The translations under genes and the position numbers were made by a program. Of a stretch of 64,000 nucleotides of DNA, positions 1 to 37,507 are shown one piece after another. The first letter of the stretch is position 1. The number at the start of each line of letters is the position of its first letter. Origin of the DNA: an uncultured Gemmatimonadaceae bacterium (GTDB taxonomy: Bacteria > Gemmatimonadota > Gemmatimonadetes > Gemmatimonadales > Gemmatimonadaceae); the NCBI GenBank assembly GCA_963751275.1, contig CAVVTZ010000009.1, forward strand, positions 480,001-544,000, given 5' to 3'. The notes under the pieces were generated by a model. That model did not search any database. It was not told the DNA's origin and worked only from the letters and a program-made list of their open reading frames with translations.

Positions 1-984
1 CGAGGGCGACACCGTCGCATCCGCCACCGACTGGAAGACGAGTGTGCGCGGGAATCCGCGCACCGGCCCCTGCGCTGACAGGCGTGAGAGCCGCGCCTCG
101 ATCTCCTGCGTGAGCTCATAGATCTGCTGTCCTGCGTTTACGGGGAACGACGCGTACTTGTACGGATCGTACTCGGGCGCGACGTCGAGCCAGGCGAGCT
201 TGCCGAGTCCCGGCAGCGCCGAGAGCCGCGACTGCCACTTCGCGAGGAAGGCGAGCTTGTCGACGCCGATCGCCGGCGAGAGCAGCACGAGGCCATCCAC
301 GCGCGGCAGGTCCGCGCCCTCGAGCCGCGCGAGCGCGTACTCCACCGAGAGTGCGGCGCCGGTGGAGAATCCCACGAGGTAGAGCGGCGCGCTCGCGCCG
401 ATCTTCTTCCGCACGTCACGCACCGCCATGCGTACTGCCGCGTCCCAATCCTGCCATCGCACGTTCTTGAGGGCCGCCGGCGCCGTGCCGTGCCCGGGCA
501 GCCGCAGCCCAACCACCCAGCAGCCGCGATCGTGCAAGCGGTCGCCGAGCGCGAGCAGGACGCGCGGCGAGTCGGTGAGTCCGTGCACCAGCACCGCCCC
601 GCAGCGCGGCTTGTCGATCGTGAGTTCGTACGTGCGGTTGCCATTCTCGGCGTACGACGTGGGATCCGACAGACTGCCGAGCGAGTAGCGGTTGAGCGTT
701 CGCCGGTCGGTCTCCGCAATGCGATCGTACACGTCGTGACGCAGTTCGCCGAACAGCCGCCCCTCGAGCGCGCGATACGCGTCGAGATCGCCCACGCGCG
801 TGCTGTCAGCGGCCGTGAATTCCTCGTCGAGCTGCGCCGTGTGCCACGGCTTGAGATCGGGAACGCGATGCACACCGAGCCACAGCGTGCCGGCGAAGAG
901 CATGACGATCGCACCGACGACGCCATAGGCAAGGAGCCGCAGCAGATGCGTCGCGAACGAGCGGATGACTTGTCGGCTGGCCAT
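1..984 (-). CDS. Alpha/beta hydrolase with N-terminal membrane anchor (runs off the window edge)
   Basis: Manual translation from ATG 984: hydrophobic N-terminus, LVHGLTDSP, GLRLPGHGT, nucleophile elbow VGFSTG, LVLLSPAIG. Not in the ORF track because there is no stop in the window. Confidence 0.85.
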   Translation of the reverse strand, partial: MASRQVIRSFATHLLRLLAYGVVGAIVMLFAGTLWLGVHRVPDLKPWHTAQLDEEFTAADSTRVGDLDAYRALEGRLFGELRHDVYDRIAETDRRTLNRYSLGSLSDPTSYAENGNRTYELTIDKPRCGAVLVHGLTDSPRVLLALGDRLHDRGCWVVGLRLPGHGTAPAALKNVRWQDWDAAVRMAVRDVRKKIGASAPLYLVGFSTGAALSVEYALARLEGADLPRVDGLVLLSPAIGVDKLAFLAKWQSRLSALPGLGKLAWLDVAPEYDPYKYASFPVNAGQQIYELTQEIEARLSRLSAQGPVRGFPRTLVFQSVADATVSPS

Positions 985-1040
985 GGGGCCGGAATATGCG
1001 CTGAAAGTTCAGCGCGCGCGATTCGCGCGGCGCGAGGGCA

Positions 1041-1135
1041 CCATCATGTCCATCATGTTCATCCTGTCAAAGCAGTTCGAGATCCTGATCCGGAACGACA
1101 CTACTTGAACAGGATGAACACGATGAACAAGATGG
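1041..1135. repeat. Imperfect inverted repeat of 9-bp-period CATCATGTTCATCCTGTCA units (REP-like)
   Basis: ccatcatgtccatcatgttcatcctgtcaa ... ttgaacaggatgaacacgatgaacaagatgg; same motif at 40979-41080. Confidence 0.75.
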
Positions 1136-1195
1136 AAGTGCGATCGCGAGCCGGAGGTAGTTCGAAGGTCGTACCATACGCCAACAACTAGACGC

Positions 1196-2044
1196 TTATC
1201 TGTCCGGGTCGACCATATCCTCGAACCGCAGCCACTTCTTGTAATAGTACAGATCGATGTACGTCGTCGGCCCCGTCCGGTTCTTGAGGATCGCGAGCTC
1301 CGTCGCTCCTTCGCTCCCGTACGCCGGGAAGTACAGCTCGTCGCGATAGAGTCCGAGCACCACGTCGGCCAATTGCTTCACCGCGCCCAGCGCGCCGAAA
1401 TCGTCGAGCACCGGCCGCATGTTCTCCCGCCCGGGCTTGAGCGCCGGCAAGTGCGACGTCACCAACAGCGCAACGCCGGAATTCACCGCGATGTCCTTGA
1501 GCCGCCGCACCGCGTGTGCGTGCTCCTCATCCTGCGCCAGCGCGCCGGTGGACACATGCTGCAGCGGATCGAGCACCACCAGCTCGACATGCTCGCTGCG
1601 CGCTACGCCCTTCGCGATCGCGTCGGGGCCGCCGCTCGGCATGCGCGCCACCTTCGGCAGCCGGTCGTGCATTCTGAGCGTGGCGGCGCCCACGCTCGCG
1701 CGCGTCTCATCGTCCATCTCGGCGCCGCGCAGCTGGTCGATGCTCGCGCGCCCCTCGATCGCGAGCGCCCGTTCCAGCACGCGCTCCGGCTCCATCTCCG
1801 CGCTGTAGAACTCCACCGCGCGCCCCGCCTCCGCCGCGCGCAGCGCGAACGCCAGCGCCAGCGCACTCTTGCCCACGCCCACGTCGCCGCCGAGCACCAC
1901 CAGGTCGCCGCGCCGCAGCCCGCCGCCCAGCAGCTTGTCGAGCGTCGGGAAACCGGAGGGCACCGTGCCTTCGGCGGGCGCGCCGTCGGCGACGGCGTCC
2001 GCCCGCTGCACCAGCTGTTTCAGTCGGGAGGGTCGGGGAGGCAT
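1196..2044 (-). CDS. DnaB-like helicase, C-terminal ATPase domain only
   Basis: GVPSGF-like start (TVPSGFPTLDKLLGGGLRRGDLVVL), Walker A GDVGVGKS, SAEM, VVLDPLQ, ADVVLGLYR, KNRTGP; only 282 aa. Confidence 0.85.
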   Translation of the reverse strand: MPPRPSRLKQLVQRADAVADGAPAEGTVPSGFPTLDKLLGGGLRRGDLVVLGGDVGVGKSALALAFALRAAEAGRAVEFYSAEMEPERVLERALAIEGRASIDQLRGAEMDDETRASVGAATLRMHDRLPKVARMPSGGPDAIAKGVARSEHVELVVLDPLQHVSTGALAQDEEHAHAVRRLKDIAVNSGVALLVTSHLPALKPGRENMRPVLDDFGALGAVKQLADVVLGLYRDELYFPAYGSEGATELAILKNRTGPTTYIDLYYYKKWLRFEDMVDPDR

Positions 2045-2050
2045 TTACGG

Positions 2051-2122
2051 ATTATAGATGGGGCGCCGGGTCGGGCAAGGGAGCCCGAGTCGTTGCTGAG
2101 CAAGGACGCGCACGGCTACATT
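2051..2122. promoter_or_regulatory. Divergent sigma70-type promoters for the dnaB-like gene and porX-like gene
   Basis: Minus strand TTGCCC-N16-TATAAT, 6 nt before ATG 2044; plus strand TTGCTG-N18-TACATT, 8 nt before ATG 2131. Confidence 0.55.
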
Positions 2123-2130
2123 CCGATACG

Positions 2131-3693
2131 ATGGCCCAACCCCTCAAGTCGGTGCTGTGGGTGGACGACGAGGCCGATCTCCTCGAGTCGCACCGCATCT
2201 ATCTGCGCGAGAAGGGCTTCGAGGTGGACGCCGCCACGAACGCCGATGACGCCGTCGAGATGCTTCGGCGGCGTCCTTATGGCATTGTCCTCCTCGACGA
2301 GCAGATGCCCGGCAAGCGCGGCCTCGAGGCCTATCGCGAGATCCGCGAGCTGGATCCGCTCCTGCCCATCGTGATGGTCACCAAGAGCGAGGAGGACGCG
2401 GTGCTCCGCGAGGCGATCGGCGTGGACGTGCGTGATTACCTCGTCAAGCCGATCAATCCGCGCCAGGTGCTCACGGTCATCACGCGTGTGTTGGAAGGCC
2501 CGCGCATCCGCGCGCAGGCGCTCTCGCGCGCGTTCGTCGAACGGTTCCGCGAGATCGAGCTCGAGCCCAAACTCACGCTCGACTGGCGCGGCTGGATCTC
2601 GCGCTATTCTGAACTCGCCGAGTGGGACATCGCGCTCGCGGACGCCAAAGAGCAGAGTCTGTACGACTCCCTGCAGGGACTCTATCCCGCGCTCCGCAAG
2701 GAATTCGCGAACTGGATGCGCGGCGAATATCCGCGCTGGCTCAAGAACCTGGAGAGCGACCGCCCGCCGCTCTCGGTGGATGTCGTGTCCGAGTTCCTGC
2801 TGCCCATTCTGGAGCGCTCGCGCGCTGCGGTCTTCGTCGTGATCGACTGCCTGCGTCTCGACCAGTGGATGACGCTCGCGCCGCTCCTCGCGCCGTGGTT
2901 CGATGTGGAGACCACGCACCATTTCTCGGTGCTCCCCACCGCCACGCCGTACTCGCGCAACGCGCTCTTCTCCGGGCTCTTTCCTGGCGAGATCGCCGCG
3001 CGCTTCCCCGACTGGTGGGGCGAGCGCGAGGACGAATCGCTCAACGCGCACGAGAAGCAGCTCCTCGAAGCGCACCTCGCCGAACTCAAGATCGACGTGC
3101 CGGTGCGCTACGATAAGATCTCGAGTGCGAATGACACCGCCGAGCTCGAGCGACGCGTGTCGGGCGCGATCGCGCACGAGGGCGTGAGCGCCTTCGTCTT
3201 CAATTTCGTGGACCTGCTCACGCACGGCCGCTCGGAGTCCGCGATCCTGCAGGAGGTCGCCAAGGACGAGATCGCCCTGCGCGCGCTTACGAAGCAGTGG
3301 TTCGAGCGGTCGGTGCTCTTCGCGCTCCTCAAGGAGGCCGCGCGCCGTCGCATCCCGGTGCTCGTCACGAGCGACCACGGCTCCATCCATTGTCACACGC
3401 CGGCCACGGTGTTCGCCAAGCGTGACGCCACCGCGAACCTCCGCTACAAGTTCGGCGAGGACCTGCGCGCCGAGCGCTCCGAGCACGCACTGCTCTTCGG
3501 GAACTCCGATGACCTGCGCCTCCCGCGGCGCGGACTCGGCGACAACACGCTGCTCGCCGTGGGCGACACCTTCTTCGTGTATCCCACCAAGCTGCGCGAG
3601 TATCAGTCGCGCTACCGCGGATCGTTCCTGCATGGCGGCGTGACGCCGGAGGAATGCATCCTGCCGGTGGCCCTGCTCACGCCCAAGAGCTGA
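2131..3693 (+). CDS. PorX-like response regulator (receiver plus PglZ/alkaline-phosphatase-family domain)
   Basis: REC motifs WVDDE, LLDEQMPG, YLVKP; PglZ motifs IDCLR, SVLPTATPYSRNALFSG, NFVDLLTH, TSDHG, FLHGGVTPEE. Confidence 0.88.
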   Translation: MAQPLKSVLWVDDEADLLESHRIYLREKGFEVDAATNADDAVEMLRRRPYGIVLLDEQMPGKRGLEAYREIRELDPLLPIVMVTKSEEDAVLREAIGVDVRDYLVKPINPRQVLTVITRVLEGPRIRAQALSRAFVERFREIELEPKLTLDWRGWISRYSELAEWDIALADAKEQSLYDSLQGLYPALRKEFANWMRGEYPRWLKNLESDRPPLSVDVVSEFLLPILERSRAAVFVVIDCLRLDQWMTLAPLLAPWFDVETTHHFSVLPTATPYSRNALFSGLFPGEIAARFPDWWGEREDESLNAHEKQLLEAHLAELKIDVPVRYDKISSANDTAELERRVSGAIAHEGVSAFVFNFVDLLTHGRSESAILQEVAKDEIALRALTKQWFERSVLFALLKEAARRRIPVLVTSDHGSIHCHTPATVFAKRDATANLRYKFGEDLRAERSEHALLFGNSDDLRLPRRGLGDNTLLAVGDTFFVYPTKLREYQSRYRGSFLHGGVTPEECILPVALLTPKS

Positions 3694-5522
3694 TGCGCGC
3701 GACACGATTCTATCCGCGCCTCATCAAGTTCCTGCGCCCGCACGGCTGGCGCATGGCGGGGAACATCATCTTTAATCTGATCGGCGCGGCGCTCGACGGT
3801 TATTCGTTCGCCCTGCTCATCCCCTTCCTGAACGCCTTGTTCAACCAGCCACCGCTCGTGGTCGGCCGCGGCTGGGTGAACAACTTCCTGCACTACACCA
3901 TCGGCGCATTGCTCGACCCCGACCACCCGATGACGTCGCTCCGCAACGTCATCGTCGTTCTGCTCGCCGTCGTCGCGGTCAAGAACATCTTCATCTGGCT
4001 CGCCAACGTCCTCGGGGCCGAGCTGCAGGAGTACGTCACGCGGGACATGCGCGACGCGGTGTACCACCATCTGGTCTCGCTCCCGATCCGGTATTTCACC
4101 AGCACCAAGGTCGGACAGATCCTCTCACGCGTGCTCAGCGATACGGAGCAGACCAAGGCGCTCGTCACCGAGGTCGTGACCAGGGCGGTGAATTCCGCCT
4201 CGCTCGTCATCGTGTACATCGCATACCTCCTCGGCATCTCGTGGCGGCTCACGCTCATCTCGCTCGTCATCGCGCCGCTCCTCACGCTGGTGCTCCAGCC
4301 GCTGCTGCGCCGGCTGCGCCACGGCTATCGCGTGCTGCGCAACGATCACGGCGAGATGATGAGCGTGTTGCAGGAGAGCGTCAGCGGCATCCGTCTCGTC
4401 AAGTCGTACGGCGCGGAGACCTACGAGGACGCGCGCTTCACCGGTGCCAGCTTCAAGTACTCGAGCGGCCTCGTGCGCATGGCGCGCATCTCGAACATCG
4501 CGCAGCCGCTCACGGAAGTGCTCGGGATGGTCATCGTCGCGGTGCTGCTCTGGATCGGGGCGCGCGAGGTGCTCATCGACAACTCACTCCAGGCGTCGCA
4601 GTTCATGGTGTTCATCGCCTTCGTGATGCGGCTGCTGCAGCCGATGAAGCAGCTCTCGCAGATCCCGGCCGTCGCGCAGAATTCCTTCGCGAGTGCCGAG
4701 CGCATCTTCCAGGTGCTGGATCATCCCACCGAGAAGGAACTCGACAAGGGCACTCGCGCGGTGGATGGCTTCCGCCAGTCCATCGTGTTCGACAACGTCT
4801 CGTTCGCGTACGACGACGAGCCGGTGCTCGGCAACATCCAGTTCGCCGCGAGGAAGGGCGACGTGATCGCGCTGGTCGGCGCGAGCGGGGCGGGGAAGAG
4901 CACGCTCGTCGATCTCATCCCGCGCTTCTACGATCCGACCAGCGGCCGGATCCTGCTCGATGGCGTGGACGTGCGCGAGATCACGCTCCCCTCGCTCCGG
5001 AACCTCACCGGGATCGTGAGCCAGGAGACGGTGATCTTCAACGAGAGCGTGCGCGCGAACATCGCGTACGGCCGCAGCGACCAGTACAGCGACGCGCAGG
5101 TCGAGGCGGCGGCGCGCGCGGCGAACGCGCACGCCTTCATCACCGAGATGCCCGACGGCTACGCGACCGCGCTCGGCGAACGCGGCGCGCGGCTGTCGGG
5201 CGGCCAGCGCCAGCGCATTGCGATCGCGCGCGCACTGCTCCTCGACCCGCCCATCCTCATCCTCGATGAGGCCACCAGTGCGCTCGACACCGAGAGCGAG
5301 CGGCTCGTGCAGGAAGCGATCGACCGCCTGCTCGAGGGCCGCACGGTGTTCGTGATCGCGCACCGCCTCTCCACGATCCAGCACGCCACCGAGATCCTCG
5401 TGCTCGACCGCGGCCGGGTCGTCGAGCGCGGCACGCACGACGAGCTGCTCGCGCTGCACGGCGCCTACCACCGGCTGCATGTGCTGCAGTTCGGCGACCG
5501 GGAGCGGGCCGTCCCTGTCTGA
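3693..5522 (+). CDS. msbA: MsbA-like ABC exporter (TMD plus NBD)
   Basis: [27 protein letters not shown]; multiple TM segments; ATG overlaps the porX stop (TGATG); adjacent to a lipid A acyltransferase. Confidence 0.8.
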
Positions 5523-6450
5523 CGATCGGCGTCCCACCCCCGCGCACCGCCTGGAGTACGGCGCGCTGCGCGCGATGCTCGCGGTGTTCGGAGCGTTCCC
5601 CTGGCGGCTCTCCACCGCGGCCGCCGGCTTCATCGGACGACTCGGCTACTCGCCCTTCCGCATCCGCCGCCGCGTGGTGGAGCGCCAGGTCGCGGCCGCC
5701 TTTCCCGGGCTCTCCGAGCGCGATGTGTCGAAGATCGCGCGCGCGTCGTACGACAACCTCGGTCGCGTTGCCGTCGAGGCCGCGCACCTCTCGCGACTCG
5801 GACCCGAACAGATCCTCGCGCTCTTCAGCGAGGTAACGGGCTGGGACGCCGTGGAGCGCGCCCGCGCGCGGGGCAAGGGGATCGTCTTCCTCACCGGGCA
5901 TCTGGGCAATTGGGAGCTGGCCGGCGCGATCGTCGCCGCGCGCGGCATCGCCTTCGACGCGATCGCACGCCGCATGGGCAATCCGCTCTTCGACGCCTAC
6001 CTCACGCGCACGCGACTGCGGCTTGGCATGAACATCGTGCCCGATTCAGAAGCGGTGCGCCGCGTGCCGCGCACCCTGCGCGCCGGCGGCGCGGTCGCGT
6101 TCCTCGCGGACCAGTCGGGACTCAATCTCGCTTCCACGTTCGTGCCCTTCTTCGGCCGCCCCGCGAAGACGCCGCGCGGGCCCGCGGTGTTCGCGCTGCG
6201 CTTCGACGCGCCCGTGATCTTCGGCGTCGCCACGCATTTCCCGGACGGACTATTCCGAATGGCCTTCGAGGAGATCCCGGTGGCGCGCACCGGCGACCTC
6301 GAGCGCGACACCGACGCGCTGCTCGCGCGCTACTCCGAAGCGCTCGAGCGCCACGTGCGCCTCGCGCCCGGCCAATACTTCTGGCAGCACAAGCGGTGGA
6401 AACGGCAGCCCGACACCACGCCGCCGGAGCTGCTCGACCCCACGCTGTGA
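5515..6450 (+). CDS. Lipid A biosynthesis acyltransferase (LpxL/HtrB family); start uncertain
   Basis: TGHLGNWE, LADQ, VPFFGRPA, PGQYFWQHKRWK. Confidence 0.88.
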   Translation: MSDDRRPTPAHRLEYGALRAMLAVFGAFPWRLSTAAAGFIGRLGYSPFRIRRRVVERQVAAAFPGLSERDVSKIARASYDNLGRVAVEAAHLSRLGPEQILALFSEVTGWDAVERARARGKGIVFLTGHLGNWELAGAIVAARGIAFDAIARRMGNPLFDAYLTRTRLRLGMNIVPDSEAVRRVPRTLRAGGAVAFLADQSGLNLASTFVPFFGRPAKTPRGPAVFALRFDAPVIFGVATHFPDGLFRMAFEEIPVARTGDLERDTDALLARYSEALERHVRLAPGQYFWQHKRWKRQPDTTPPELLDPTL

Positions 6451-6711
6451 CCGCGCCGCGCGAGCCGCGGTCGCGCCATCGCGAGCGGTTCATCTCGGCA
6501 TCGGAGCTTGGCGAGTACGCCTATTGCCGCCGCGCCTGGTGGCTCCGCGCGGTGCGCGGCGCGCATTCGGAAGAGCAGGGCACGCGATTCGACGAGGGAC
6601 GCGCCGCGCACGAGCGCCATGGCTACGGTCTGGTCGCCGCGCGCTCGTTCGCCATCGTGGCGCGTGCTGCTCGCCGCCGCGGCCGCGCTCTGGTTCTGGT
6701 TCGCGCGATGA
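6447..6711 (+). CDS. Cas4-like N-terminal half (first Fe-S Cys) with C-terminal TM helix; probable 1-bp insertion near 6663
   Basis: ISASELGEYAYCRRAWWL...EGRAAHERH; the +1 frame gives AIVAVLLAAAAALWFWFAR* with TGA overlapping the next ATG. Confidence 0.7.
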
Positions 6712-7215
6712 TCATCGCTGCGATCGCGCTCGCCGCCGCGAGCCTGCTCGCGATCGCGAGCATCGTGCTCTACCGGCGCGCCGGCATCCGCGGCCGCATC
6801 ATCGCGAGCGACGGCCCCGTGTCGCGTCCGTCGCGCGTGCTGCGCTCGGCGCGCCACGGCATCTCCGGCAAACCCGACTACCTCGTGATCGAGAGTGGCC
6901 GCGTCGCGCCGGTCGAGGTGAAGCCCACGCGCGAGAGCGATCGGCCGTGGCTGCGCGACGTGGTCCAGCTCGCGGCGTACTGCCTGCTCGTCGAGGAGAC
7001 GCACGAGGACTTCGCAGGCTATGGCTATCTCCGCTACGCCAACCGTACCTTTCGCATCGACTTCACTGATTCCATGAGGGACGAAGTGCTCCGCACCGCG
7101 AACGAGATGCGCACCGACCTCGGCGCCGAGGACGTCGATGCGAACCACCGGCGACCCGCGTCGCTGCGCGCGGTGCGCACTCCGCACGCCCTGCGGCCGT
7201 CCGGTGACTGCATGA
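6708..7215 (+). CDS. Cas4-like PD-(D/E)XK nuclease C-terminal half with N-terminal TM helix; probable 1-bp insertion at 7161
   Basis: MIIAAIALAAASLLAIASIVLY, then GISGKPDYL, PVEVK, QLAAYCLLVEE; removing T7161 gives NHRRPARCARCALRTPCGRPVTA* (CxxC...C). Confidence 0.78.
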
Positions 7216-8361
7216 GCTACGACGTGACCGCGTTGCGCGCGCGCGAATATCCGTGGGCCGAGCGCGGCGACGCCATCTGATCCGAACAACGCATCCACCG
7301 GCGCGCTGCCGGCGCGCACCGTGCGCGCGACCGCCGATTTCCACGCGCTGCGCGCCGAGCCGTGGCGGCTCAGCGATGATGCGCAGTTCGCCATCCTCCG
7401 CCGCACCCGCGAGCTCGCCGCGACGCTCATCGGCGCTACTCCCGATGAGATCGCGTGCATGTCGAACACGACGTACGGCGTGAACATCGCCGCGCGCTGC
7501 CTGCCATTGAAGGCTGGCGACGTCGTGCTCACCTTCGACCGCGAATTCCCCGCGAACATTTATCCCTGGATGGCGCTCGCGAAGAAGGGCATCACGCTGA
7601 CGCGCATCCCCACGCGCGACAAGCTCCCCGACGAGGACGCCCTCATCGCCGCGCTCGACGGCAAGAACGTGAGCGTCGTCGCGATCGGCTGGGTGAACTT
7701 CGCCACCGGCTTCAAGGCCGATCTCGCGCGCATCGGCCGCGCCTGCCGCGAGCGCGGCATCTACTTCGTGGTCGACGCGATGCAGGGACTCGGCGCCGCC
7801 ACGCTCGACGCGCGCGCCTGCCACATCGATATCCTCGCATGCGGCGGCCAGAAGTGGCTGCTATCCCCGTGGGGATCGGGCTTCACCTATGTCCGTCGCG
7901 AGCTCGTGCAGCAGCTCGAGCCCGAGGCCGTCGGCTGGATGGCGATGCGCGCCTCCGAGGACTTCACGCGCCTCGTGGATTACGAATTCGCCTTCCACGA
8001 CGACGCGCGCCGCTTCGAGGTGATCACCCTCCCCTTCCAGGATTTCGCCGGCTTCAACGCGAGCCTCGAGATGATGATCGAGCTCGGCCTCAAGGACATC
8101 GAGGCGCACGACGCCGCGTTGGTTGGTCAGGCCGTCGCGTGGGCGCAGAGCCGGAAGGACATGAAGCTCGTGACGCCAGCGGATCCCGCGCGCCGGGCCG
8201 GCATCGTCTCGATCGCGCCGCCCGACCCCGCGGCGACGTCAGCGCGCCTCACGAAGGCGAAGATCATCCACTCGCTGCGCGAGGGCGCCATCCGGCTGTC
8301 GCCGCATTGCTACAACACGAGCGCGGAGATTTCGCGCGCGCTGGAAGTCCTGGGCGGCTAG
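7212..8361 (+). CDS. Class V PLP aminotransferase / cysteine desulfurase-like (indel near 7280)
   Basis: NNASTGALP, NTTYGVN, EFPANIYPW, VDAMQGLG, CGGQKWLLSPWGSGF, IRLSPHCYN. Confidence 0.88.
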
Positions 8362-8567
8362 GAACCGCCGACGGCGAGTGTGACACCGCGGACGGCGTCT
8401 GTGACACCGCTGACGGCGCCTGTGACGTGTGCGACGTGTGGCAACGACCGCGGCGCGTGTAGTTGCTACACGTCTCACAGGTCACAAGCGCCCCCAGCGG
8501 CGTCACACTCGCCGTCCGCGGTGTCACACTCGCGGTCGGCGGTGTCATACTCGCCGCCGGCGGTTCC
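8361..8567. repeat. About 207-bp palindromic element built from 21-bp units
   Basis: Left arm ggaaccgcc-(gacggcgagtgtgacaccgcg)x3; right arm is the reverse-complement array ending ggcggttcc. Confidence 0.8.
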
Positions 8568-8614
8568 AATCTCGCCGTTCAATCAGTGCCAGACGTTGCC
8601 GTCCGAACGCGCCG

Positions 8615-8875
8615 TCAGAGTTTGATCCGGAGCCATCTCCGCCCCACGTACACTCCACCCGCCAGCATCCCCGCCTGTCCGAAGAACTGCACCATCCCGA
8701 ACGGCGTCGGCCCGTACGGCCCGCCGCCCTTCTCCTCGATCGCGCGCTCCTTCAACGGCCAGCCGACGATCTTGATCGCGGCGAGCCAGATCAGCATCGA
8801 CACGCCGACGATCATCGCGCTGCGCGCGAATGCCTCGGGCCACGACGGCGCGAGCCGCACGCCGCCGCTACTCAT
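8615..8875 (-). CDS. Small membrane protein
   Basis: Two hydrophobic segments; overlaps the upstream gene's stop. Confidence 0.6.
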   Translation of the reverse strand: MSSGGVRLAPSWPEAFARSAMIVGVSMLIWLAAIKIVGWPLKERAIEEKGGGPYGPTPFGMVQFFGQAGMLAGGVYVGRRWLRIKL

Positions 8876-9344
8876 CGCTCGCCTCCTGCTCCTCGACGGT
8901 GAACGCGCGCTGCCGCAGCGCCGCCAGCACCCAGCCCCAGTTCATCGCGAGATGCAGCCCGATCGCCACGAACAGCACGTTCGATGTCGAGTCGTGCAAC
9001 TCGAACCAGTCCCCGTCGTAGATCGTCGGCATCCCAGCCCAGGGGAGCACCACGCGCGACACCATGATGCCCGAGACGATCACGAGCACCATCGCGAGGA
9101 ACAGCCCCACGTTGATCGCATAGTTGATCCGCGTGCGCACGCTGCCGTTCGCGAACAGGCGCCGCGCCTTCGAGATGATCCAGTGCCAAGAGAGCAGCAT
9201 ATGGAGGATGAGCGGCACCGCGATCGCGATGCCGAGCACTTCGTGCGCCGCGACGCCGGTGATCCGCGGCGACTGGATGAGCAGGAAGAGCAGCAATAGC
9301 AGAACGTCGAGCCAGAGCGCGAAGGCGGTGCGGGACATTGGCAT
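8868..9344 (-). CDS. DUF4405-like cytochrome b-type membrane protein
   Basis: Four TM helices with His pairs (HEVLG..LH..LSWHWI; LHDSTS..LHLAMNW). Confidence 0.75.
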   Translation of the reverse strand: MPMSRTAFALWLDVLLLLLFLLIQSPRITGVAAHEVLGIAIAVPLILHMLLSWHWIISKARRLFANGSVRTRINYAINVGLFLAMVLVIVSGIMVSRVVLPWAGMPTIYDGDWFELHDSTSNVLFVAIGLHLAMNWGWVLAALRQRAFTVEEQEASDE

Positions 9345-27404: not shown

Positions 27405-28053
27405 TCAGTGTCCGCTGTCCGCCGACGGGCCGAAGTTCAAGCGCACGCCGCCTTCCAGCAGGTACGCCGCGCGCCCGTTCAGGATGAAGTTGCTCGGCGT
27501 CGGCATGTAGATGAAGTTGCCGAAGATCGCCACGCGCTTGAGCTGCGCGTGCACGCCCACCAGCAGATTGACCTGGATCCGCATCCTTCTCCTCGCTCAG
27601 GTTATGCTGCACCTGATCCCGCACGTTCGGGTTGAGGATCGAGTCGGTGATCGTCGCTTCGTGCGACAGGTTCATGATGAATCCGCCGCCCGCGTAGAGG
27701 TGCACGCCGCCCCAGGCCACCGGGAGCGCGATCACGTCGGCCATGACCTGCGTCATGTCCTTGATCTGCACGTTGTACGGGACGCCGTTGTTGTCCGTCA
27801 CCGACGCGCTGGTCGTGAAGAACGCCTGGCCCACCGAGAGATAGAGGCCGCCGCGCGTCTTCGTGATGAACCACTCGGCGTTGACCACGGGCGCCGTCTG
27901 ATTGGCGACGGTAGCCGTCGAGAACGACATGGCGCCGGCGTTCAGCCCCCAGAACCACGAATCGTTGAACAGGCGCCCTCCCTGAGCGGAGCTGGCCGAC
28001 GGCGCCAGTGCAACAAGGGCGAGACCGGATGCGAGCCACCGGACCATGCGCAT
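27405..28053 (-). CDS. Exported beta-barrel-like hypothetical protein (indel near 27585)
   Basis: Signal peptide MRMVRWLASGLALVALAPSASSA; alternating beta-strand pattern; ends LLEGGVRLNFG.. in the shifted frame. Confidence 0.65.
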
Positions 28054-28336
28054 GGTGAAGCTCCTCGTACGTGTGGTGTGAAGATCGGAAAAAGGACTGC
28101 TGTCGCCCGTCCCAAACCGCTCAAGATTCGAGACGGAGAAGCCGGGCACCGAACGCCGGATAACGAGGTCGATCATGTCACGGACGAGGCGAACTCCTCA
28201 GGCGTCACAGACTTGCCCGCTCTCACGAACCTGGTTTCTAACCCCCTCTGCTTGACCACCGTCGTCGCCGCCACCACTTTGCCCCGGTGAGCGACCGTCG
28301 GAGCGTCCCCTGACCCCTCTCGCTGCCTCGCCTGCC

Positions 28337-28654
28337 GTGGAGCAATTCCACAGCGCCGTCTACGGCACCGTCTTCGGACGACGCATGGACGTGGTGCACC
28401 GCTTGAACGCCGGTGACCGCCTGATCCTCGTGCCCGACGCCCCCGGCACCGACAATCCCGCCGTCTGGGTACACGCACGAGGCGGCGACGTCGTTGGGCA
28501 TCTCCCCTTCGCCATCTGCGGCTGGCTCGTCCCCTGGATGCTCGGCGGGGGCCGGTGCAGCGCCTCGGTCGAGAAGGTCGGGACGGACGAGACGCCCAGT
28601 TGGCAGCGCTTGATCATCCGGCGTCCGCTTCCTGGGACTCCCGGCGCGCGGCTG
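28337..28654 (+). CDS. HIRAN-like domain protein (boundaries uncertain)
   Basis: LNAGDRLILVPD..DNPAVWVH..DVVGHLP resembles HIRAN. Confidence 0.6.
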
Positions 28655-28662
28655 AGGTTACG

Positions 28663-29884
28663 TCAGCAGCCCCGCTTTCTTCCCCACGCGCTTGAACGCC
28701 GCCACCGCCAGATCGAGATCCTCGCGCGTGTGCGCCGCCGACAGCTGGCAGCGGATGCGCGCCGTGACCCTGCGGCACCACCGGGAAGCCGAAGCCCGTC
28801 ACGAAGACGCCCTCGTCGAGCAGCATCTCGCTCATCGCGGATCGCGGTGGCCGTCTCGCCGATGATGATCGGGACGATCGGCGTCTCGCCGTCGAGCGGC
28901 TTGAAGCCCGCCTCGGTCAGCGCCGCCGCGGAAGTAGCGCGCGTTGTCGTGCAGGCGTGCGACGCGCTCCGGGTGCCGTTCGATGCACGCGCACCGCCGC
29001 GAGCGCGCTGGCCGCCACGGTGGGCGGCAGCGCGTTCGAGAAGAGCTGCGGACGCGAGCGCTGCGTGAGCATAGTCGCAGAGCGCCGCCGAGCCGGCCGT
29101 GAAGCCGCCCGCCGCGCCGCCCAGCGCCTTGCCGAGCGTGCGACGTGATCACGTCCACCTCGCCGAGCACGCCGAAGTGCTCCGGCCGTGCCGCGCCCCG
29201 TCGCGCCGATGACGCCGGTGGCGTGCGAGTCGTCCACGACCACGCACGGCGTCGTGATCGCGCGCGATCTGCAGCAGCTGCGGCAGCTTCGCGATGCTCG
29301 CCCTCCATCGAGAAGATCGCCGTCGGTCCAGATCAGCCGGCGCCGCGCGCCCTTGGTCGCGCGCAGCTTCTCCTCGAGGTCGTCCAGGTCGCAGTGGCGG
29401 TACACGGCGGTCGTGCACTTCGTGATCGCCTTCGCGAGCCGGATCGAGTCGATGATCGACGCGTGGTTCAGCGCGTCGGAGACAGACGAAGTCGCCCTCT
29501 TCCACCACGGTCGCGGTGCAGCCCCTCGTTGGCGTTCCACGCGGAGACGAGCGACAGCGCCGCCTCGGTGCCCACGAAGCGCGGCGAGCGCCGCCTCGAG
29601 CTCGCGGTGCACGGTGAACGTGCCGCAGATGAAGCGCACGCTGCCCGTGCCGGCGCCGAACTTGTCGAGCGCCGTCGATGCCCGGCGCGGATCACGCTCG
29701 GCTCGTCGCACAGGCCGAGGTAGTTGTTCGACGAGAGGATCAGCACCTCGCCGCGCCCCTCCATCTTCACGTGCGCCGACTGCGGCGACGTCGAGGATAG
29801 TTGAGGCGCTTGTAGACGCCGTCCGTCTTGAACTGCGTCGAGCGCGGCCATGCAGCTCGCGCGTGAAGGAGGATTCGCGTTCAT
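28663..29884 (-). CDS. kbl: Glycine C-acetyltransferase (many indels)
   Basis: LSSNNYLGL, GTGSVRFICGT, SDALNHASIID, VDDSHATG, GFGFPVVPQG fragments; downstream of tdh. Confidence 0.88.
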
Positions 29885-29892
29885 CGGGATCC

Positions 29893-30941
29893 TCAGGCAC
29901 CGATGTCGAAGATGACCTTGCCCGCCGCGCCCGATCTTGATCGACGCGCGATGGCGTCGTCGAATCCGTCTCCAGCGGGAAGCGGTGCGTGATCACCGGC
30001 GCGCGGGTCGAACTTCCCCGACCGCAGGAAACGCGTCATCAGGTGCCACGTGTCGTACATCCGGCGCCCGGTCACGCCGTAGACGGTCACGCCCTTGAAG
30101 ATGAGCTCCGTCGGCGAAGTCGAACTCCATCGGCTTGGCCGGCATGCCGAGCATCTGCACGCGCCCGCCGGGCGCACGAGCTTGAATGCCTGGTGGATCG
30201 CGGCCGGCACGCCGCGACATCTCGAGCACCACGTCGACGCCGAGCCCGCCGGTCGCAGCCTTGCACGGCGGCCTCCGCCGTCCGTCTCGGATGGACGACA
30301 TCGTGCGCGCCCATCGCGCGCGCGAGCGCGAGCCGCGTGTGGTTCACGTCGCTCGCGATCACGCGCGACGCGCCGGCCGCCACGCAGATGCCGACCGCGA
30401 AGATGCCGATCGGGCCGCAGCCGGTGACAGCACCGTCGCGCCCGGGATCTCGGTGCGGTGAGCGCGGTGTGGAAGGCGTTCCCCATCGGGTCGTGGATGC
30501 CGCCGATCTCGATAGGAGATGTCGTCGTCCAGATGCCAGCACGTTCGTCGCCGGCATCGCGATGAACTCGGCGAAGCAGCCGTCGCGGTCCACGCCGATG
30601 ATCGCGCGTGTTCGGGCAGACGTGCGCCGTTGCCGGTGCGGCAGAGCATGGCAGTGTGCCGCAGACGATGTGCCCCTCGGCGGTCACGCGGTCGCCGACT
30701 TTCACGTCGCGTCACGAGCGTCCCGACCGCACCGACATTCGCCGGCGAACTCGTGGCCCACCGTGAAGGGCGGCTTGCAGCGCCCCTGCGCCCAGTCGTC
30801 CCATTCGTAGATGTGGACGTCGGTGCCGCACACGCCGGCGCGGCGTACGCGGATCAGGACCTCGTCGTCACGGATCGTGGGCTCGGGCACCTGCTTCATC
30901 ACGAAGCCCGGCGCCGCCTTCTCTTTCACGAGTGCTCGCAT
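29893..30941 (-). CDS. tdh: L-threonine 3-dehydrogenase (many indels)
   Basis: MRALVKEKAAPG, GVCGTDVHIYEWD, GHEFAG, GCGPIG, GVTGRRMYDTW, GKVIF. Confidence 0.9.
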
Positions 30942-31034
30942 GCGCCGAAAAATGCGCTCCGGGGGAACGCCCCGCCACCAGCGCCAATGATCCCGTCGCG
31001 CGCATGGCATTGATGCCGTGCCGGTTCAACCGAT

Positions 31035-31065
31035 GACTGTCGACTGTTGACTGTAGACTGTTGAC
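31035..31065. repeat. Heptamer tandem repeat GACTGTN
   Basis: gactgtc gactgtt gactgta gactgtt gac. Confidence 0.7.
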
Positions 31066-31091
31066 CGCACTTGGCAGTTGGACTCAGAGCC

Positions 31092-31120
31092 TTGCCGACC
31101 AAGGGAGTGCGGAACATACT
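31092..31120 (+). promoter_or_regulatory. sigma70-like promoter of the tldD/E operon
   Basis: TTGCCG-N17-CATACT. Confidence 0.5.
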
Positions 31121-31146
31121 CTCCGCTACCCTTTCACAACTGGGAT

Positions 31147-32787
31147 ATGAGTATGGACCCGACCTCCCGCCGCGAATTCCTCATCAAGTCCGGCGCCGCC
31201 GCGGCCGCCCTCGGCATCGCCTCCCTCGCCGAGAACGCCGCCGCGCAAACGCTCATTCTGCCCGGCGCGCCCGGCTCCGCCGGCGACGCCTCGATCAAGG
31301 ATCTCGCGCTCCTCGGCGTCGACGCCGCCAAGAAGGCCGGCGCGCAGTACGCCGATGTGCGCATCGCCCAGAACCGCAGCCAGCGCATCTTCACCCGCGA
31401 GCACCGCGTGCAGGCACTCGATGATTCCGAGACGTTCGGCATCGGCGTCCGCGTGCTGGCCAACGGCGCATGGGGCTTCGCCGCCGGCCGCGAGCTCACC
31501 AAGGACCAGGTGCTCGCCCTCGTGAAGCGCGCGATGGCGCAGGCGCAGGCCAACCGCACCGCGCTCGTGCCGGCCGGTCGTGCTCGCGCCCGGACGCCGA
31601 GGCACCAACGGCGCGTGGAAGACGCCCATCGAGACCGATCCCTTCACCGTTCCGATCGTCGACAAGGTCGCGCTGCTGCTCGCCGCGAACGAGGCGGCGA
31701 AGGTGCAGGGCGTCCGCAACGTCACCTCGAGCATGTTCTTCCTGCGCGAGGAGAAGACGCTCATGACGAGCGACGGCACGTACGTCGTGCAGACGATTTA
31801 TCGCACGCAGCCGTCGATGACCGTGACCGCCGTCTCCGAAGACCTCACCGACTTCCAGTCGCGCGCGGCGACCGACGTCGCGCCGATGGGGCTCGGCTAC
31901 GAGCACGTCGTCAGACGCGAAACTCGGCGAGAACGCGCCGCGCTGGGCAGACGACGCCGTGCAGAAACTCTCGGCCAAGCCCGTGGAGGTCGGGCAAGTA
32001 CGACCTCGTGCTGCATCCGTCGAACCTCTGGCTCACGATCCACGAATCGATCGCCCACCCGACGGAGCTCGATCGCGCGATGGGATACGAAGCCAACTAT
32101 GCGGGCACGAGCTTCGTCTCACCGCCGGAGAAGATGCTCGGCAAGTTCAAGTACGGCCCCGAGGTCATGAACATCCAGGGCGACCGCAAGCAGCCCGGCT
32201 CGCTCGCGGCGCGATCGGCTGGGACGACGAGGGCGTGCGCCCGACACCTTCGACATCATCAAGGACGGGATCGTGAACGACTACCAGACCACGCGCGAGC
32301 AGGCGCTCGTGGCTCGAGTGGTGGTACAAGAAGCAGGGCAAGCCCGGTCGCTCGCACGGCTGCTCGTACGCGCAGATCTGGTCCGACGTGCAGTTCCAGC
32401 GCATGCCGAACGTCTCGCTCTTCCCGGGCGAGAAGGATACAGTCGTGGGACGACCTGATCTCGGCGACGGACCACGGCATCGCGATCGTCGGCGACGGAT
32501 CGTTCTCGATCGACCAGCAGCGCTACAACGCGCAGTTCGGCGGCCAGTTCTTCTACGAGATCAAGGGCGGCAAGATCACCGGCATGCTCAAGGACGTCGC
32601 CTACCAGATCCGGACGCCGGAGTTCTGGGACTCGATGGACATGATCGGCGGCAAGAGCAGCTACCAGCTCGGCGGCGCGTTCGACGACGGCAAGGGGCAG
32701 CCCGCGCCAGTCGAACGCGGTGAGCCACGGCTGCGTGCCCTCGCGCTTCAAGCAGGTCAACGTCATCAACACCGGGAGGAAAGCTGA
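31147..32787 (+). CDS. TldD family metalloprotease 1 with Tat signal (indels)
   Basis: SRREFLIKSG..AAA signal; YADVRI; IHESIAHPTELDR; RMPNVSL; GKGQP. Confidence 0.88.
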   Translation: MSMDPTSRREFLIKSGAAAAALGIASLAENAAAQTLILPGAPGSAGDASIKDLALLGVDAAKKAGAQYADVRIAQNRSQRIFTREHRVQALDDSETFGIGVRVLANGAWGFAAGRELTKDQVLALVKRAMAQAQANRTALVPAGRARARTPRHQRRVEDAHRDRSLHRSDRRQGRAAARRERGGEGAGRPQRHLEHVLPARGEDAHDERRHVRRADDLSHAAVDDRDRRLRRPHRLPVARGDRRRADGARLRARRQTRNSARTRRAGQTTPCRNSRPSPWRSGKYDLVLHPSNLWLTIHESIAHPTELDRAMGYEANYAGTSFVSPPEKMLGKFKYGPEVMNIQGDRKQPGSLAARSAGTTRACARHLRHHQGRDRERLPDHARAGARGSSGGTRSRASPVARTAARTRRSGPTCSSSACRTSRSSRARRIQSWDDLISATDHGIAIVGDGSFSIDQQRYNAQFGGQFFYEIKGGKITGMLKDVAYQIRTPEFWDSMDMIGGKSSYQLGGAFDDGKGQPAPVERGEPRLRALALQAGQRHQHREES

Positions 32788-32791
32788 ACTC

Positions 32792-34176
32792 ATGACGCCG
32801 CGCTCGCTGTACGACTCCCGAGAACGCGCCGCTCTCGCGCGACGAATGCGCAGGCGCTCGCCAAGCGGACGATCGCCTTTTCGAAGGCGGAGCAGGTGCG
32901 CGTCACCATCCGCAACGGCTCGCAAGGCAATACGCGCTTCGCCGTCAATCAGGTGAGCACGGCCGGCGACATGAGCGACACGTCAGTCTCCGATGCACGG
33001 TGTCGTTCGGCAAGCGCGCGTCGAGCGCGAGCACCAACAAGCTCGACGACGCCTCCCTCAAGAACCTCGTCGCGCTCTGCCGAGCGACTCGCGCATCTCG
33101 CTCCCGAGGATCCGGAGCTCATGCCGGAGCTTGGGGCCCAGCAGTACGTGCCGGCCGACGGCTGGAGCGCCATCGACGGCCAATCTCGACGCGGCGGGGC
33201 GCGCGGCGGCGGTGCGCAGCGTCGCGACGCCGGCGCTCGATGCCGGCTTGGTCGCCACCGGCTTCATCGAGGCCGACGCCGACGTGCTCTCGGTCGCGAA
33301 CACGAAGGGCCTCTTCGCCTACGGCCGCCTGACCGGCGCGACGATGACGACCACCGTGCGCACCCCGACGGGCGCGGCAGCGGCTGGGCGGGCGCCTCGC
33401 ACTACGGATTCGACCAAGATCGATCCGCGGCGCGCTCGGCGAGCGCGCCGTCGAGAAGGCGCAAGGACTCCGTGGACGCGGTGGCCATCGAGCCGGGCAA
33501 GTACACCGTCGTGCTCGAGACCCGCCGCGGTCGGCAATCTCGTGCAGCTCCTCGGCTTCGCGCTCAACGGGCGCAGCGCCGACGAGGGCCGCAGCTTCTT
33601 CTCCAAGCCGGGCGGCGGCAACAAGATCGGCATGAAGGTGGTGGACGACCGCGTCACGCTCTGGTCGGATCCCGCCGATCCCGACGCGCGCGCGTACCCG
33701 TTCGCTCCCGACGGCCTCGCGATCGTCCAGCACGCCGTGGATCGACCAACGGCGTGTGCACGAATCTCTCGTACGACCGCTACTGGGCGCAGAAGCAGGG
33801 GAAGGAGCCGACGCCGTTCAGCCGCTCGCTGCACATGGCCGGCGGCACGTGCTCGGTCGAGGATCTCGTCGCGTCCACGCAACGCGGCATCCTCGTCACC
33901 CGCTTCTGGTACATCCGCCCCGTGGACCCGCGCACGATGCTGTTCACCGGGCTCACGCGCGACGGCACGTTCCTCATCGAGAACGGGAAGGTGACGCGTC
34001 CGATCAAGAATCTGCGCTTCAACGAATCGCCCGTGTTCATGCTCAACAACCTCGAAGCGATGGGCGAGTCCGTTCGCGTCGCCGCCAGCGAGGACAGCAG
34101 TCCCGGAGCCGCCATCGTCGTCCCGCCGATCAAGGCGCGCGACTTCACGTTCACCAGCCTGAGTGACGCCATCTGA
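32792..34176 (+). CDS. TldE/PmbA family partner 1 (indels)
   Basis: [50 protein letters not shown]. Confidence 0.85.
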
Positions 34177-35811
34177 TGACTGACCGCCGAGAATTCCTCA
34201 AACATAGCGCGCAGGTCGCGGCCGCGATCGCCGCCGCCAATGCGTGGAAGGTGACGGGAGGCGCGGGGCAGCTGCTCGCCGCGTCGGCCGCGCCCGCCGC
34301 GCCGCCGCTGCCCGATGCGACCATCAAGGCCCTCATGATGGACGCGCTCAACGCCGCGAAGTCCGCCGGGGCGAGCTAGGCCGATGTGCGCATCGGACGC
34401 CAGCAGCAGAATTTCGTCTTCACGCGCGACGACCATATCAACAACGTCGTGGACACCGATTCGGTGGGCTGCGGCGTGCGCGCCCTCGTCGATGGCGCCT
34501 GGGGCTTCGCCGCCACCCGGAACCTCACGACCCGCCGTCACCGCCGCCGCGAAGGAAGCGGTCGCCATCGCGAAGGCGAACAAGATGGCGCTCGACCGCG
34601 CGGCGGTGCTCGCGCCCGCGCCGGTGCTGCCCAGCGCCATCTGGAAGAGCGCCTACAAGACCGATCCGTGGGACGTCTCGGTGGAAGAGAAGGTCGACCT
34701 GCTCCTCGCGCGAACGCGGACGCACTCAAGACGCCCAGCGTGAAGTACGTGAACTTCAGCGGCCTCTTCTTCGTGAAGGAACAGCGCGACTACGCCAACA
34801 GCGACGGCTCGGTCACCTCCCAGACCGCCATCCGCAGCTGGCCGCTGATGCAGATCACCGCCGTCGCGCCGGATTTCTCGGACTTCCAGAACCGCGGCAA
34901 CGTCGTGCCGCCCCATGGGACGCGGCTGGGAATACGTCCTCGGCGCCGACCTTCCCGGCAACGCGGCCAAGTGGGCCGACGAGGCCGCGCAGAAGCTCAA
35001 GGCGAAGCCGGTGGAGCCGGGCAAGTACGACCTCGTGCTGCACCCGTCGCACCTCTGGCTCACGATCCACGAGTCGATCGGCCATCCCACGGAACTCGAC
35101 CGTGCGCTCGGCTACGAAGCCAACTACGCCGGCACGAGCTTCGTCGCGCCGCCGGAGAAGGTGCTGGGCAAGCTCAAGTACGGGCCCGAGTTCATGAATA
35201 TCCAGGGCGACCGCTCGCAGGAGGGCGGCCTCTCCACGATCGGGTTCGATGATGACGGCGTGAAGCCCAACGACTTCCTCATCATCAAGAACGGCATCTT
35301 CAATGACTACCAGACCACGCGCGAACAGGCGGAGTGGATCAGCTGGTGGTACAAGCAGAACAACACGGAGACGCGCTCGCACGGCTGCTCCTACGCGCAG
35401 GGCTGGGACAACGTCCAGTTCCAGCGCATGCCGAACGTCTCGCTGCTCCCCGGCGAGAAGGACCTGGTGTGGGAGGACCTGATCGCCGCGACCGACAGCG
35501 GCATCGCCATCATCGGCGATGGATCGTTCTCCATCGACCAGCAGCGCTACAATGGCCAGTTCGGCGGCCAGACCGCCTGGGAAGTGAAGGGCGGCAAGAT
35601 CGTCGGCATGCTCAAGGACGTCGCGTACCAAATGCGCACGCCCGATTTCTGGAACAGCATGGACATGATCGGCGGCAAGCGCGGCTATGAACTCGGCGGT
35701 TCCTTCTTCGACGGCAAGGGCCAACCCGGCCAGGTCAACGCCGTGAGCCACGGCGCCGTGCCCTCGCGCTTCAAACAGATCAACGTCATCAACACCGGGA
35801 GAAAAGTATGA
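34176..35811 (+). CDS. TldD family metalloprotease 2 with Tat signal (in-frame TAG at 34377 and indels)
   Basis: [11 protein letters not shown] signal; IHESIGHPTELDR; RMPNVSL; GKGQPGQ. Confidence 0.88.
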
Positions 35812-37213: not shown

Positions 37214-37225
37214 GAACCTGTTACA

Positions 37226-37284
37226 CGGGAATCGGGAATCGGGAATCGACAACGCAGTTTCGATTCCCGACTCCCGACTCCCGA
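37226..37284. repeat. Inverted pair of GGGAATC/GGGAGTC heptamer arrays
   Basis: cgggaatcgggaatcgggaatcg ... cgattcccgactcccgactcccga. Confidence 0.8.
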
Positions 37285-37295
37285 GAAAGAAGAAA

Positions 37296-37325
37296 AGGCC
37301 GGACGAGCAGTCGCTCGTCCGGCCT
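37296..37325 (-). terminator. Intrinsic terminator for the small minus-strand ORF (possibly bidirectional)
   Basis: aggccggacgagc-agtc-gctcgtccggcct with an A-rich flank (U-tract on the minus strand). Confidence 0.7.
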
Positions 37326-37351
37326 CATTCATTTATGACTGCAGTCGTTCC

Positions 37352-37507
37352 CTACGCTACACGCTTTTTGGTCGTCGGCGCCGGCAGTTCCGGCACTGCG
37401 CTCCACTCATAAGCCCAGAACAACGGCGGAGTCTCGTCGCGGTCTCCATTGGAGATCACAATGCCGAGGGGCTCAGGGGACTGGTGCATCTCTTTGCGTG
37501 CGGCCAT
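37352..37507 (-). CDS. Small hypothetical protein (51 aa)
   Basis: MAARKEMHQSPEPLGIVISNGDRDETPPLFWAYEWSAVP..; GAGGAG RBS upstream, terminator downstream. Confidence 0.6.
   Translation of the reverse strand: MAARKEMHQSPEPLGIVISNGDRDETPPLFWAYEWSAVPELPAPTTKKRVA

Follow-up and report, generated by a model that had tools for sequence, protein, structure and literature searches.

The subject of this analysis is a pair of overlapping open reading frames (ORFs), ORF1 and ORF2, in a 64,000-nucleotide stretch of contig CAVVTZ010000009.1 from an uncultured Gemmatimonadaceae bacterium (positions 480,001 to 544,000; assembly GCA_963751275.1), hereafter the window. The two ORFs very probably encode complementary halves of a Cas4-type nuclease, each with one predicted transmembrane (TM) helix, which likely form an obligate heterodimer at the inner membrane, on its cytoplasmic side. 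The pair comprises the following features, numbered by window position:

6447..6711, + strand: ORF1, the N-terminal half (N-half); GTG start, motif ISASELGEYAYCRRAWWL..G...H..H, 87 amino acids (aa) in relatives
Parts of ORF1: ISASE-x5-YC with iron-sulphur (Fe-S) Cys1; G-x3-H-x2-H helix with the predicted metal-site His; C-terminal TM helix
6708..6711, + strand: ATGA stop/start overlap, coupling ORF1 (TGA 6709-6711) with ORF2 (ATG 6708)
6708..7215, + strand: ORF2, the C-terminal half (C-half); ATG 6708, TGA 7213-7215, 168 aa in relatives
Parts of ORF2: N-terminal TM helix, then an Arg cluster, invariant Asp35, GKPD (motif II) and EVK (motif III); on the C-terminal side QLAAY, then CxxC-x5-C with Fe-S Cys2-4

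A preliminary description of this DNA had placed the motifs of both ORFs and the ATGA overlap at these positions, and the sequence bears this out. It had also stated that the deposited frame reads as one protein with a single internal TM segment, and this frame indeed runs through both halves, with one hydrophobic stretch, to a stop at 7278-7280. It lacks the C-terminal cysteines, as CxxC-x5-C sits in another frame that ends at TGA 7213-7215. Alignment with three relatives of the same genus (86-87% identity) distinguished extra single bases in the window at about 6663 in ORF1, at 7148/7149 in ORF2 and at 7279 in the adjacent aminotransferase gene, the frame of which is open straight from ATG 7212 in relatives. 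The removal of one base from ORF1, as previously proposed, is thus needed, while the extra base in ORF2 was misplaced at T7161. In short-read contigs of ~90%-identical relatives, bases 6663 and 7149 are absent in three of four runs and base 7279 in two of four, with one run barely covering the stretch and absence counting only where the contigs cover the bases. Where the window can be aligned to two relatives (53.7 kb), some 55 distinct frame-changing indels, mostly +1, are found in the window alone, a tally made by eye from a list of 83 events with duplicates. The extra bases at ~6663 and 7148/7149 are therefore most likely assembly errors, as judged from relatives rather than from source reads, and the single-protein reading was rejected on the basis of the relatives without these bases and the many similar private indels. 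Across window positions 1-60000 such indels are densest at 27500-37600, and other 'split gene' findings there need comparison with relatives.

Distribution of the two-gene state

Homologs of ORF2 were found in six of 60 relatives, with two ORFs in all seven loci (one N-half is cut by a contig end), and in a sample of 301 genomes of the phylum four further strong loci were all split (4/4). Two ORFs occur in each of the eleven homologous loci of the window's own family, in which the presence of the pair is patchy (6/36), and the close homologs carry the Gemmatimonadaceae label. Twelve further phylum genomes with weaker matches encode an ordinary Cas4 or Cas4-Cas1, and the family counts exclude them. 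Purifying selection is evident on both ORFs, with a ratio of non-synonymous to synonymous substitution rates (dN/dS) of about 0.1-0.3 over whole ORFs in three close relatives. Of 427 ORF2 homologs found, 120 were listed; all 120 have a hydrophobic window near the N-terminus as well as CxxC..C, and none has the N-terminal Cys motif, so that single soluble homologs or loss of the Cys cluster, named in the preliminary description as evidence against a split nuclease, did not emerge among them. The ORF1 homologs (n = 112; median 86 aa) incorporate a C-terminal hydrophobic window in 111 cases and the Cys motif in all 112.

A scan of GTDB genomes yielded at least 582 relatives, and 79 of the best 80 are titled Chloroflexota. 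Among these best 80 of at least 582, the N-half is a separate upstream ORF in 72, is fused in none and is not encoded nearby in eight. In 25 of these 72 loci (counted by eye) the halves are separated by an unrelated gene, which codes for a 210-aa uncharacterised protein in 18 loci and an L,D-transpeptidase in seven. The former (e.g. L062:5348-5977) shows weak HEAT/ARM-like matches (Adaptin_N, Cnd1, DVU0298), and occurs as a tandem pair in two loci. In five of the eight orphan C-half loci the remainder of the genome was searched, and an N-half was located elsewhere in all five. Halves that are separated by another gene or unlinked must be separate polypeptides, and programmed frameshifting or read-through giving one chain was rejected for the family on the same grounds.

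The halves also co-occur. In a sample of 251 Chloroflexota genomes, an N-half match was found in 71, all of which (71/71) have a C-half, and 54 of the 55 genomes with a C-half at E<1e-50 have an N-half. Further C-half genomes that were fetched from this phylum encode a divergent N-half in nine of ten cases, in one of the nine as a fusion. Five weak Chloroflexota matches on cas1-bearing contigs (G338, G351, G362, G369, G547) were left out of the family counts. In one Chloroflexota subgroup (L115-L127, L132, L133) the N-half is ~50 aa longer, with extra residues inserted after the Cys motif and before the His helix, and one of its members (L126) is re-fused. For an archaeal-type query, 80 metagenome loci were examined: 72 were split, two were fused and six lay too near the contig start. 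The clade includes C-halves assigned to Methanothrix and Archaeoglobaceae. The two-polypeptide, two-anchor reading of the preliminary description, which had called for a survey of homolog pairs for a conserved split and TM helices, is thus the normal state of a large family in Gemmatimonadota, Chloroflexota and archaeal-type loci. The split pair also occurs on plasmids of Bacillus subtilis, Paludisphaera and Singulisphaera. The member on plasmid pPL62-2 of Planctomyces sp. SH-PL62 (NZ_CP011275.1, L147:5837-6336) follows an IS701 transposase, is annotated as a 100-aa piece and is possibly disrupted. A phage origin was rejected, as phage records contained no match and viral contigs a single weak one.

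The probable divided nuclease domain and its predicted membrane anchors

The catalytic motifs are strongly conserved among 304 C-halves (PD in 301, ExK in 302, QxxxY in 301 and the Cys cluster in 302), and G-x3-H-x2-H is found in 182/183 N-halves. Invariant residues are C27, W31, G51, H55 and H58 in ORF1, and D35, D57, E70, K72, Y91 and the three Cys in ORF2. The distribution of one N-terminal and three C-terminal Cys over two halves, proposed in the preliminary description, was recovered: the four are present across both ORFs and inside natural fusions, and are absent from either ORF alone. ORF1 also carries a predicted metal-site His which that description had not mentioned. Its first His aligns with His94 of Pcal_0546, a proposed metal ligand equivalent to SSO0001 His62 (PMC4176176). 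With Cys1 and the metal-site His in ORF1 and the other site residues in ORF2, we infer that both the metal site and the Fe-S cluster would be divided between two genes, and that the product would be an obligate heterodimer.

Comparison with known families and folds agrees with the claim that the halves are parts of one Cas4-type nuclease. The two profiles cover complementary regions of a solved Cas4 (8D3L), with ORF1 aligning weakly to residues 3-48 (E 1.3) and ORF2 to residues 104-202 (E 9e-5), and in TIGR00372 positions 2-45 are matched by ORF1 and 60-178 by ORF2. The raw window frame exceeds the cut-offs of PF01930 (33.2 vs 22.7 bits) and TIGR00372 (66.4 vs 65 bits). Natural fusions score 97.3 and 92.5 bits, and the separate halves, at 56.2 and 21.8 bits, fall under the TIGR00372 cut-off of 65. 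The N-half (ORF1 family) matched no Pfam family.

A profile search over 1.84 billion proteins identified 13 full fusions and one partial fusion among the 150 matches listed. The full fusions all carry the N-terminal Cys motif and have two (nine proteins), four (three) or eight (one) hydrophobic helices before the nuclease core; in the fusions, the loop of the TM hairpin joining the halves lies at the place equivalent to the split between ORF1 and ORF2. One fusion cluster includes WP_052353351.1 of Methermicoccus shengliensis, and this fusion (P0384) was modelled (predicted local distance difference test 94.5; predicted template modelling score 0.89), with a helix at 39-84 and a return helix at 88-119. 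The model matches Cas4 structure 7MI4 over 186 residues (Z 20.4; root-mean-square deviation, rmsd, 2.9; model range 6-266), with both halves covered, and 8D3L over 192 residues (Z 19.8, rmsd 3.6). For this fusion, rather than for the window's own pair, it thus predicts one Cas4 domain with a helical hairpin added.

In a quick tree, which is unrooted, has a small outgroup and includes rows picked by similarity, a branch separates the 50 membrane-type rows from nine CRISPR-linked Cas4 (Shimodaira-Hasegawa-like approximate likelihood ratio test, SH-aLRT, 99). A first tree of 136 rows was poorly resolved. The fusions occur at several points among the split forms, a pattern suggestive of more than one fusion or fission event in the history of the family. 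Fusions P0326, P0360, P0371 and P0375, with four or eight helices, form one well-supported clade together with P0333.

Lys and Arg residues (K/R) predominate before the helix in N-halves (96/111 and 68/71) and after the helix in C-halves (113/113, 78/79 and 104/107), a comparison biased by the short outer-side flanks. According to the positive-inside rule, the K/R-rich flank marks the cytoplasmic side. Both soluble parts would thus be cytoplasmic, with which the even number of helices in the fusions agrees, and ORF1 is predicted to be N-in/C-out and ORF2 N-out/C-in. Twin-arginine translocation (Tat) or lipobox motifs occur in 2/304, and a secreted nuclease is disfavoured, as a positive n-region and a Tat or lipobox pattern are lacking.

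Gene neighbourhoods and candidate roles

In the window the pair is set in a chromosomal housekeeping operon with msbA-like and lpxL genes, the synteny of which is kept in relatives:

3654..5522, + strand: ATP-binding cassette (ABC) transporter (ABC_membrane + ABC_tran), MsbA-like by position
5479..6450, + strand: LpxL-family lipid A acyltransferase, immediately 5' of ORF1; its stop overlaps the ORF1 GTG
7212..8361, + strand: class V aminotransferase/cysteine-desulfurase-like protein; its ATG overlaps the ORF2 stop

At 2131-3693, immediately 5' of the ABC transporter gene, is a gene for a response regulator with a PglZ domain, presumably PorX-like. The spacer after the aminotransferase gene contains short repeated units (8239-8625; VTPRTASVTP-like in translation), with a difference in length from relatives.

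Other lineages present other neighbours. The 80 Chloroflexota loci are accompanied by genes for translin (41), NAD kinase (40), a B-box membrane protein (35), recN (34), DUF3467 (24) and ssb (17), as well as hisS, and Trm5 and aRF1 occur in the archaeal-type loci. On the B. subtilis plasmid, the pair (WP_144625283.1 and WP_144625286.1) is located between a DinG-like helicase and hfq, thermonuclease and primase genes, on an element that also carries Tcp conjugation and Flp pilus genes. This 63.6-kb plasmid (NZ_OX419581.1; L144/L146) is typed as 'non-mobilizable', and also encodes a replication-relaxation protein. The pair adjoins DNA methyltransferases on two planctomycete plasmids. Directly 3' of the C-half, L150 (689-1420) and 17 other archaeal-type loci encode a protein with a hydrophobic leader and without a Pfam match. 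By eye this downstream protein of 18 loci appeared thermonuclease-like, but a shared thermonuclease neighbour was rejected, as the protein neither matched Pfam nor aligned with the plasmid thermonuclease in BLAST. Among PADLOC models only Cas4-type matches and weak DruK matches (E about 4e-8) were found, with the partners of these systems not seen among the neighbours. Prokaryotic Argonaute (pAgo) was not among the frequent neighbours of the Chloroflexota and archaeal-type loci, with no genome-wide pAgo search made.

Taken as a whole, these data are best, if tentatively, explained by a heterodimeric membrane Cas4-type nuclease that probably trims or degrades single-stranded DNA (ssDNA) ends at the membrane; processing of ssDNA at the inner membrane face is itself a cautious proposal. 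The helices of ORF1 and ORF2 would pair into the hairpin seen in the fusions, a physical pairing already presumed in the preliminary description. ORF1 would contribute Cys1 of the Fe-S 'staple' and the His of a Mg/Mn site, and ORF2 the Asp, Glu, Lys, QxxxY motif and Cys2-4, with neither half expected to be active alone. The cluster, taken as 4Fe-4S in the preliminary description, may be 4Fe-4S or 2Fe-2S (PMC4176176). The long ORF1 helix would run from the His to the membrane, fixing the distance of the nuclease head from the bilayer. Family precedent predicts a Mg/Mn-dependent DNase, probably a 5'-to-3' ssDNA exonuclease. Its substrate, the least supported step, may be ssDNA that enters by transformation or conjugation, or repair intermediates near the membrane. 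For the presumed role on incoming DNA, raised in the preliminary description, the Cas4-like gene of S. elongatus that limits plasmid transfer provides a precedent. Hints at the DNA-processing role come from the neighbours described above: the helicase, thermonuclease and primase genes on the B. subtilis plasmid with its conjugation and pilus genes, the methyltransferases on the planctomycete plasmids, and recN and ssb near the Chloroflexota pairs.

A number of observations weigh against this mechanism or parts of it. The neighbourhoods are mostly housekeeping and lineage-specific, and no consistent defence or competence context occurs in them. Mobile elements rarely carry the pair, with matches in only 6 of 72,556 plasmid records and none of 50,697 phage records. 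The TM calls derive from Kyte-Doolittle windows rather than a topology predictor, the flank bias noted above affects the predicted orientation, and fusions P0271 and P0285 have only one window above the hydropathy threshold. Five fetched Chloroflexota members (L125-L127, L132, L133) have lost the motif II Asp and kept Cys and TM, so catalysis is dispensable in some lineages. Furthermore, some Cas4 enzymes are active without an Fe-S cluster (PMC4176176, PMC12501428), and shared Cys alone thus do not force pairing.

Alternatively, the same heterodimer could be a housekeeping repair nuclease, membrane-tethered and Exo5/AddB-like, which acts on replication or damage intermediates under SOS control in some lineages. 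This unlikely explanation would accommodate the single-copy, chromosomal genes with a stable position per lineage, the occurrence of recN (34), ssb (17), GIY-YIG nuclease (7) and O6-methylguanine methyltransferase (7) at the 80 Chloroflexota loci, and a perfect GAAC-N4-GTTC box, which we take to be the LexA-type consensus, 118-119 bases upstream of the N-half in 3/70 loci. However, recN and NAD kinase form a common housekeeping pair, the perfect box is absent from 67/70 loci and from window positions 1-9000, and the one-mismatch box is found in 8/70 loci vs 109/1600 random places. The patchy presence in the window's own family also speaks against it, and SOS control across the family, with the box in so few loci, is not supported.

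The association with translin raises the prospect, on balance rather improbable, of a membrane-anchored RNase with RNase Y-like placement that functions in RNA turnover, together with translin in Chloroflexota. Translin is encoded directly upstream of the N-half in 41/80 Chloroflexota loci, stays with the N-half where the C-half is unlinked (L109), and is present in 79/80 pair-positive vs 68/171 other Chloroflexota genomes (counted by eye), a co-occurrence that is confounded by kinship; hfq moreover follows the pair on the B. subtilis plasmid. Against this, translin was not found in any of five pair-positive genomes of the window's family (5/5), the window's own genome included, by which an obligate translin partner is rejected, and the characterised Cas4 proteins are DNases (PMC4176176, PMC12501428).

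There is little likelihood that the pair is a trans-acting CRISPR adaptation factor, trimming prespacers at the membrane and passing them to Cas1-Cas2 encoded elsewhere. The nearest solved folds are those of adaptation Cas4 proteins, and cas1 is present in 62/80 pair-positive vs 51/171 other Chloroflexota genomes, a difference confounded by kinship. However, cas1 was not found in 18 of those 80, nor in 9/11 pair-positive genomes of the window's family, including some that are 94-100% complete. The preliminary description had stated that no cas1 is present, and there is no cas1 match in the window's genome (83% complete). No cas gene is among the frequent neighbour clusters of 160 loci, and the tree separates the family from the nine CRISPR-linked Cas4 (SH-aLRT 99).

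Equally improbable is a non-catalytic or conditional Fe-S sensor or scaffold, in which the hairpin and cluster would sense redox conditions or the state of the envelope, and nuclease activity would be of secondary importance or lost. The five Chloroflexota loci without the motif II Asp, the fusions with four or eight TM helices and the envelope-gene neighbours (lpxL and the MsbA-like ABC transporter in the window; L,D-transpeptidase between the halves in seven loci) would fit such a role, whereas the catalytic motifs are intact in ~99% of the 304 C-halves and in the window. Finally, that the locus of this genome is a pseudogene, or encodes a true single-TM protein as deposited, is highly improbable: although no sequencing run from the window's own DNA turned up by which to judge the two extra bases directly, they are missing from relatives at 86-92% identity, are matched by the ~55 similar private indels in 53.7 kb, one of them in the adjacent aminotransferase gene, and a single-TM fusion would place Cys1 and the His on the opposite membrane side from the remainder.

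Comparison with known Cas4-family systems

Beyond the heterodimeric membrane nuclease proposed above, the pair might represent an undescribed, widespread class of two-subunit membrane nucleases, with an active site and Fe-S cluster shared between separately encoded, sometimes unlinked proteins, in which cutting would be gated by TM-helix pairing and DNA inspected at its entry point. This is a speculative and rather unlikely extension; if true, the class would be spread over Chloroflexota, Gemmatimonadota and archaea, and would extend to a conjugative plasmid of Bacillus subtilis.

As a Cas4-family gene outside CRISPR-cas loci and mobile elements, with a few members on plasmids, the pair fits the solo-Cas4 category. 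The cas1/cas2 adjacency by which CAS-Cas4 is defined does not occur here, the neighbours being lpxL and the aminotransferase gene, with CRISPR arrays not searched for. Monophyletic solo-Cas4 have been described in many Chloroflexi (Hudaiberdiev et al. 2017, PMC5704561), and Figure S1 of that study lists Methermicoccus shengliensis, Euryarchaeota archaeon 55_53 and Singulisphaera acidiphila, in all three of which the present family was found here. Organisms with this family are catalogued there as 'solo' or 'mobile' Cas4. The available main text of that paper contains neither 'split' nor 'N-terminal', uses 'membrane' once in an unrelated sense, and states that four Cys occur in all members. Likewise, the Solo-Cas4 of M. 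mazei was purified as an oligomer, and the available text of that report (Rentz et al. 2025, PMC12501428) contains neither 'membrane' nor 'split'. No description of a split or membrane-anchored Cas4 was found in the literature searched, outside which fall most subscription journals and bioRxiv supplements. PMC13621843 concerns a different family, DUF2779, as far as its available text goes, and that of PMC3424549, exclusive of its supplements on transmembrane elements, names no split or membrane Cas4.

For part of the 'solo-Cas4' genes, whose function is unknown, the split family offers an explanation: many proteins of ~170 aa annotated as Cas4 are probably half enzymes, with an 80-aa partner annotated as 'hypothetical', and would mislead if studied alone. 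An Fe-S cluster and a metal site shared by two membrane-anchored gene products would be an unusual design. The family is amenable to testing, with a single-chain form in the cultivated Methermicoccus shengliensis and the split form on a plasmid of the genetically tractable B. subtilis.

Among more distant relatives, AddB/AdnAB, Dna2 and human EXO5 have a related nuclease fold (Z 9.7-13.2) and a discontinuous 1+3 Cys cluster, the 'iron staple' described in PMC4176176. These are helicase-fused or soluble single chains, and no matched chain has a membrane hairpin inside the nuclease domain. The nearest functional precedent for action on incoming DNA is a CRISPR-independent Cas4-like nuclease, represented by S. 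elongatus cas4 (PMC10653904) and ACE1, the Argonaute-associated Cas4 family enzyme (PMC12094033), with a fold match of Z 11.4 and rmsd 4.4. The S. elongatus gene reduces the transfer or maintenance of foreign plasmids (PMC10653904), but ACE1 is one chain working with pAgo, unlike the two-gene pair.

The closest likeness is to CRISPR Cas4 (TIGR00372, PF01930; 8D3L, 7MI4, 4IC1 for SSO0001 and 4R5Q for Pcal_0546), with which the pair has in common the fold, the 1+3 Cys arrangement, the metal-site His and the PD, ExK and QxxxY motifs. Unlike CRISPR Cas4, which is a single soluble chain, the pair has a hydrophobic hairpin that interrupts the domain after the His helix, ahead of the beta-sheet core, and is usually encoded by two genes, sometimes unlinked, outside cas operons. 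The pair can thus be regarded as a real, conserved and apparently unpublished variant of the Cas4 family, with a well-supported architecture in which the two halves presumably pair.

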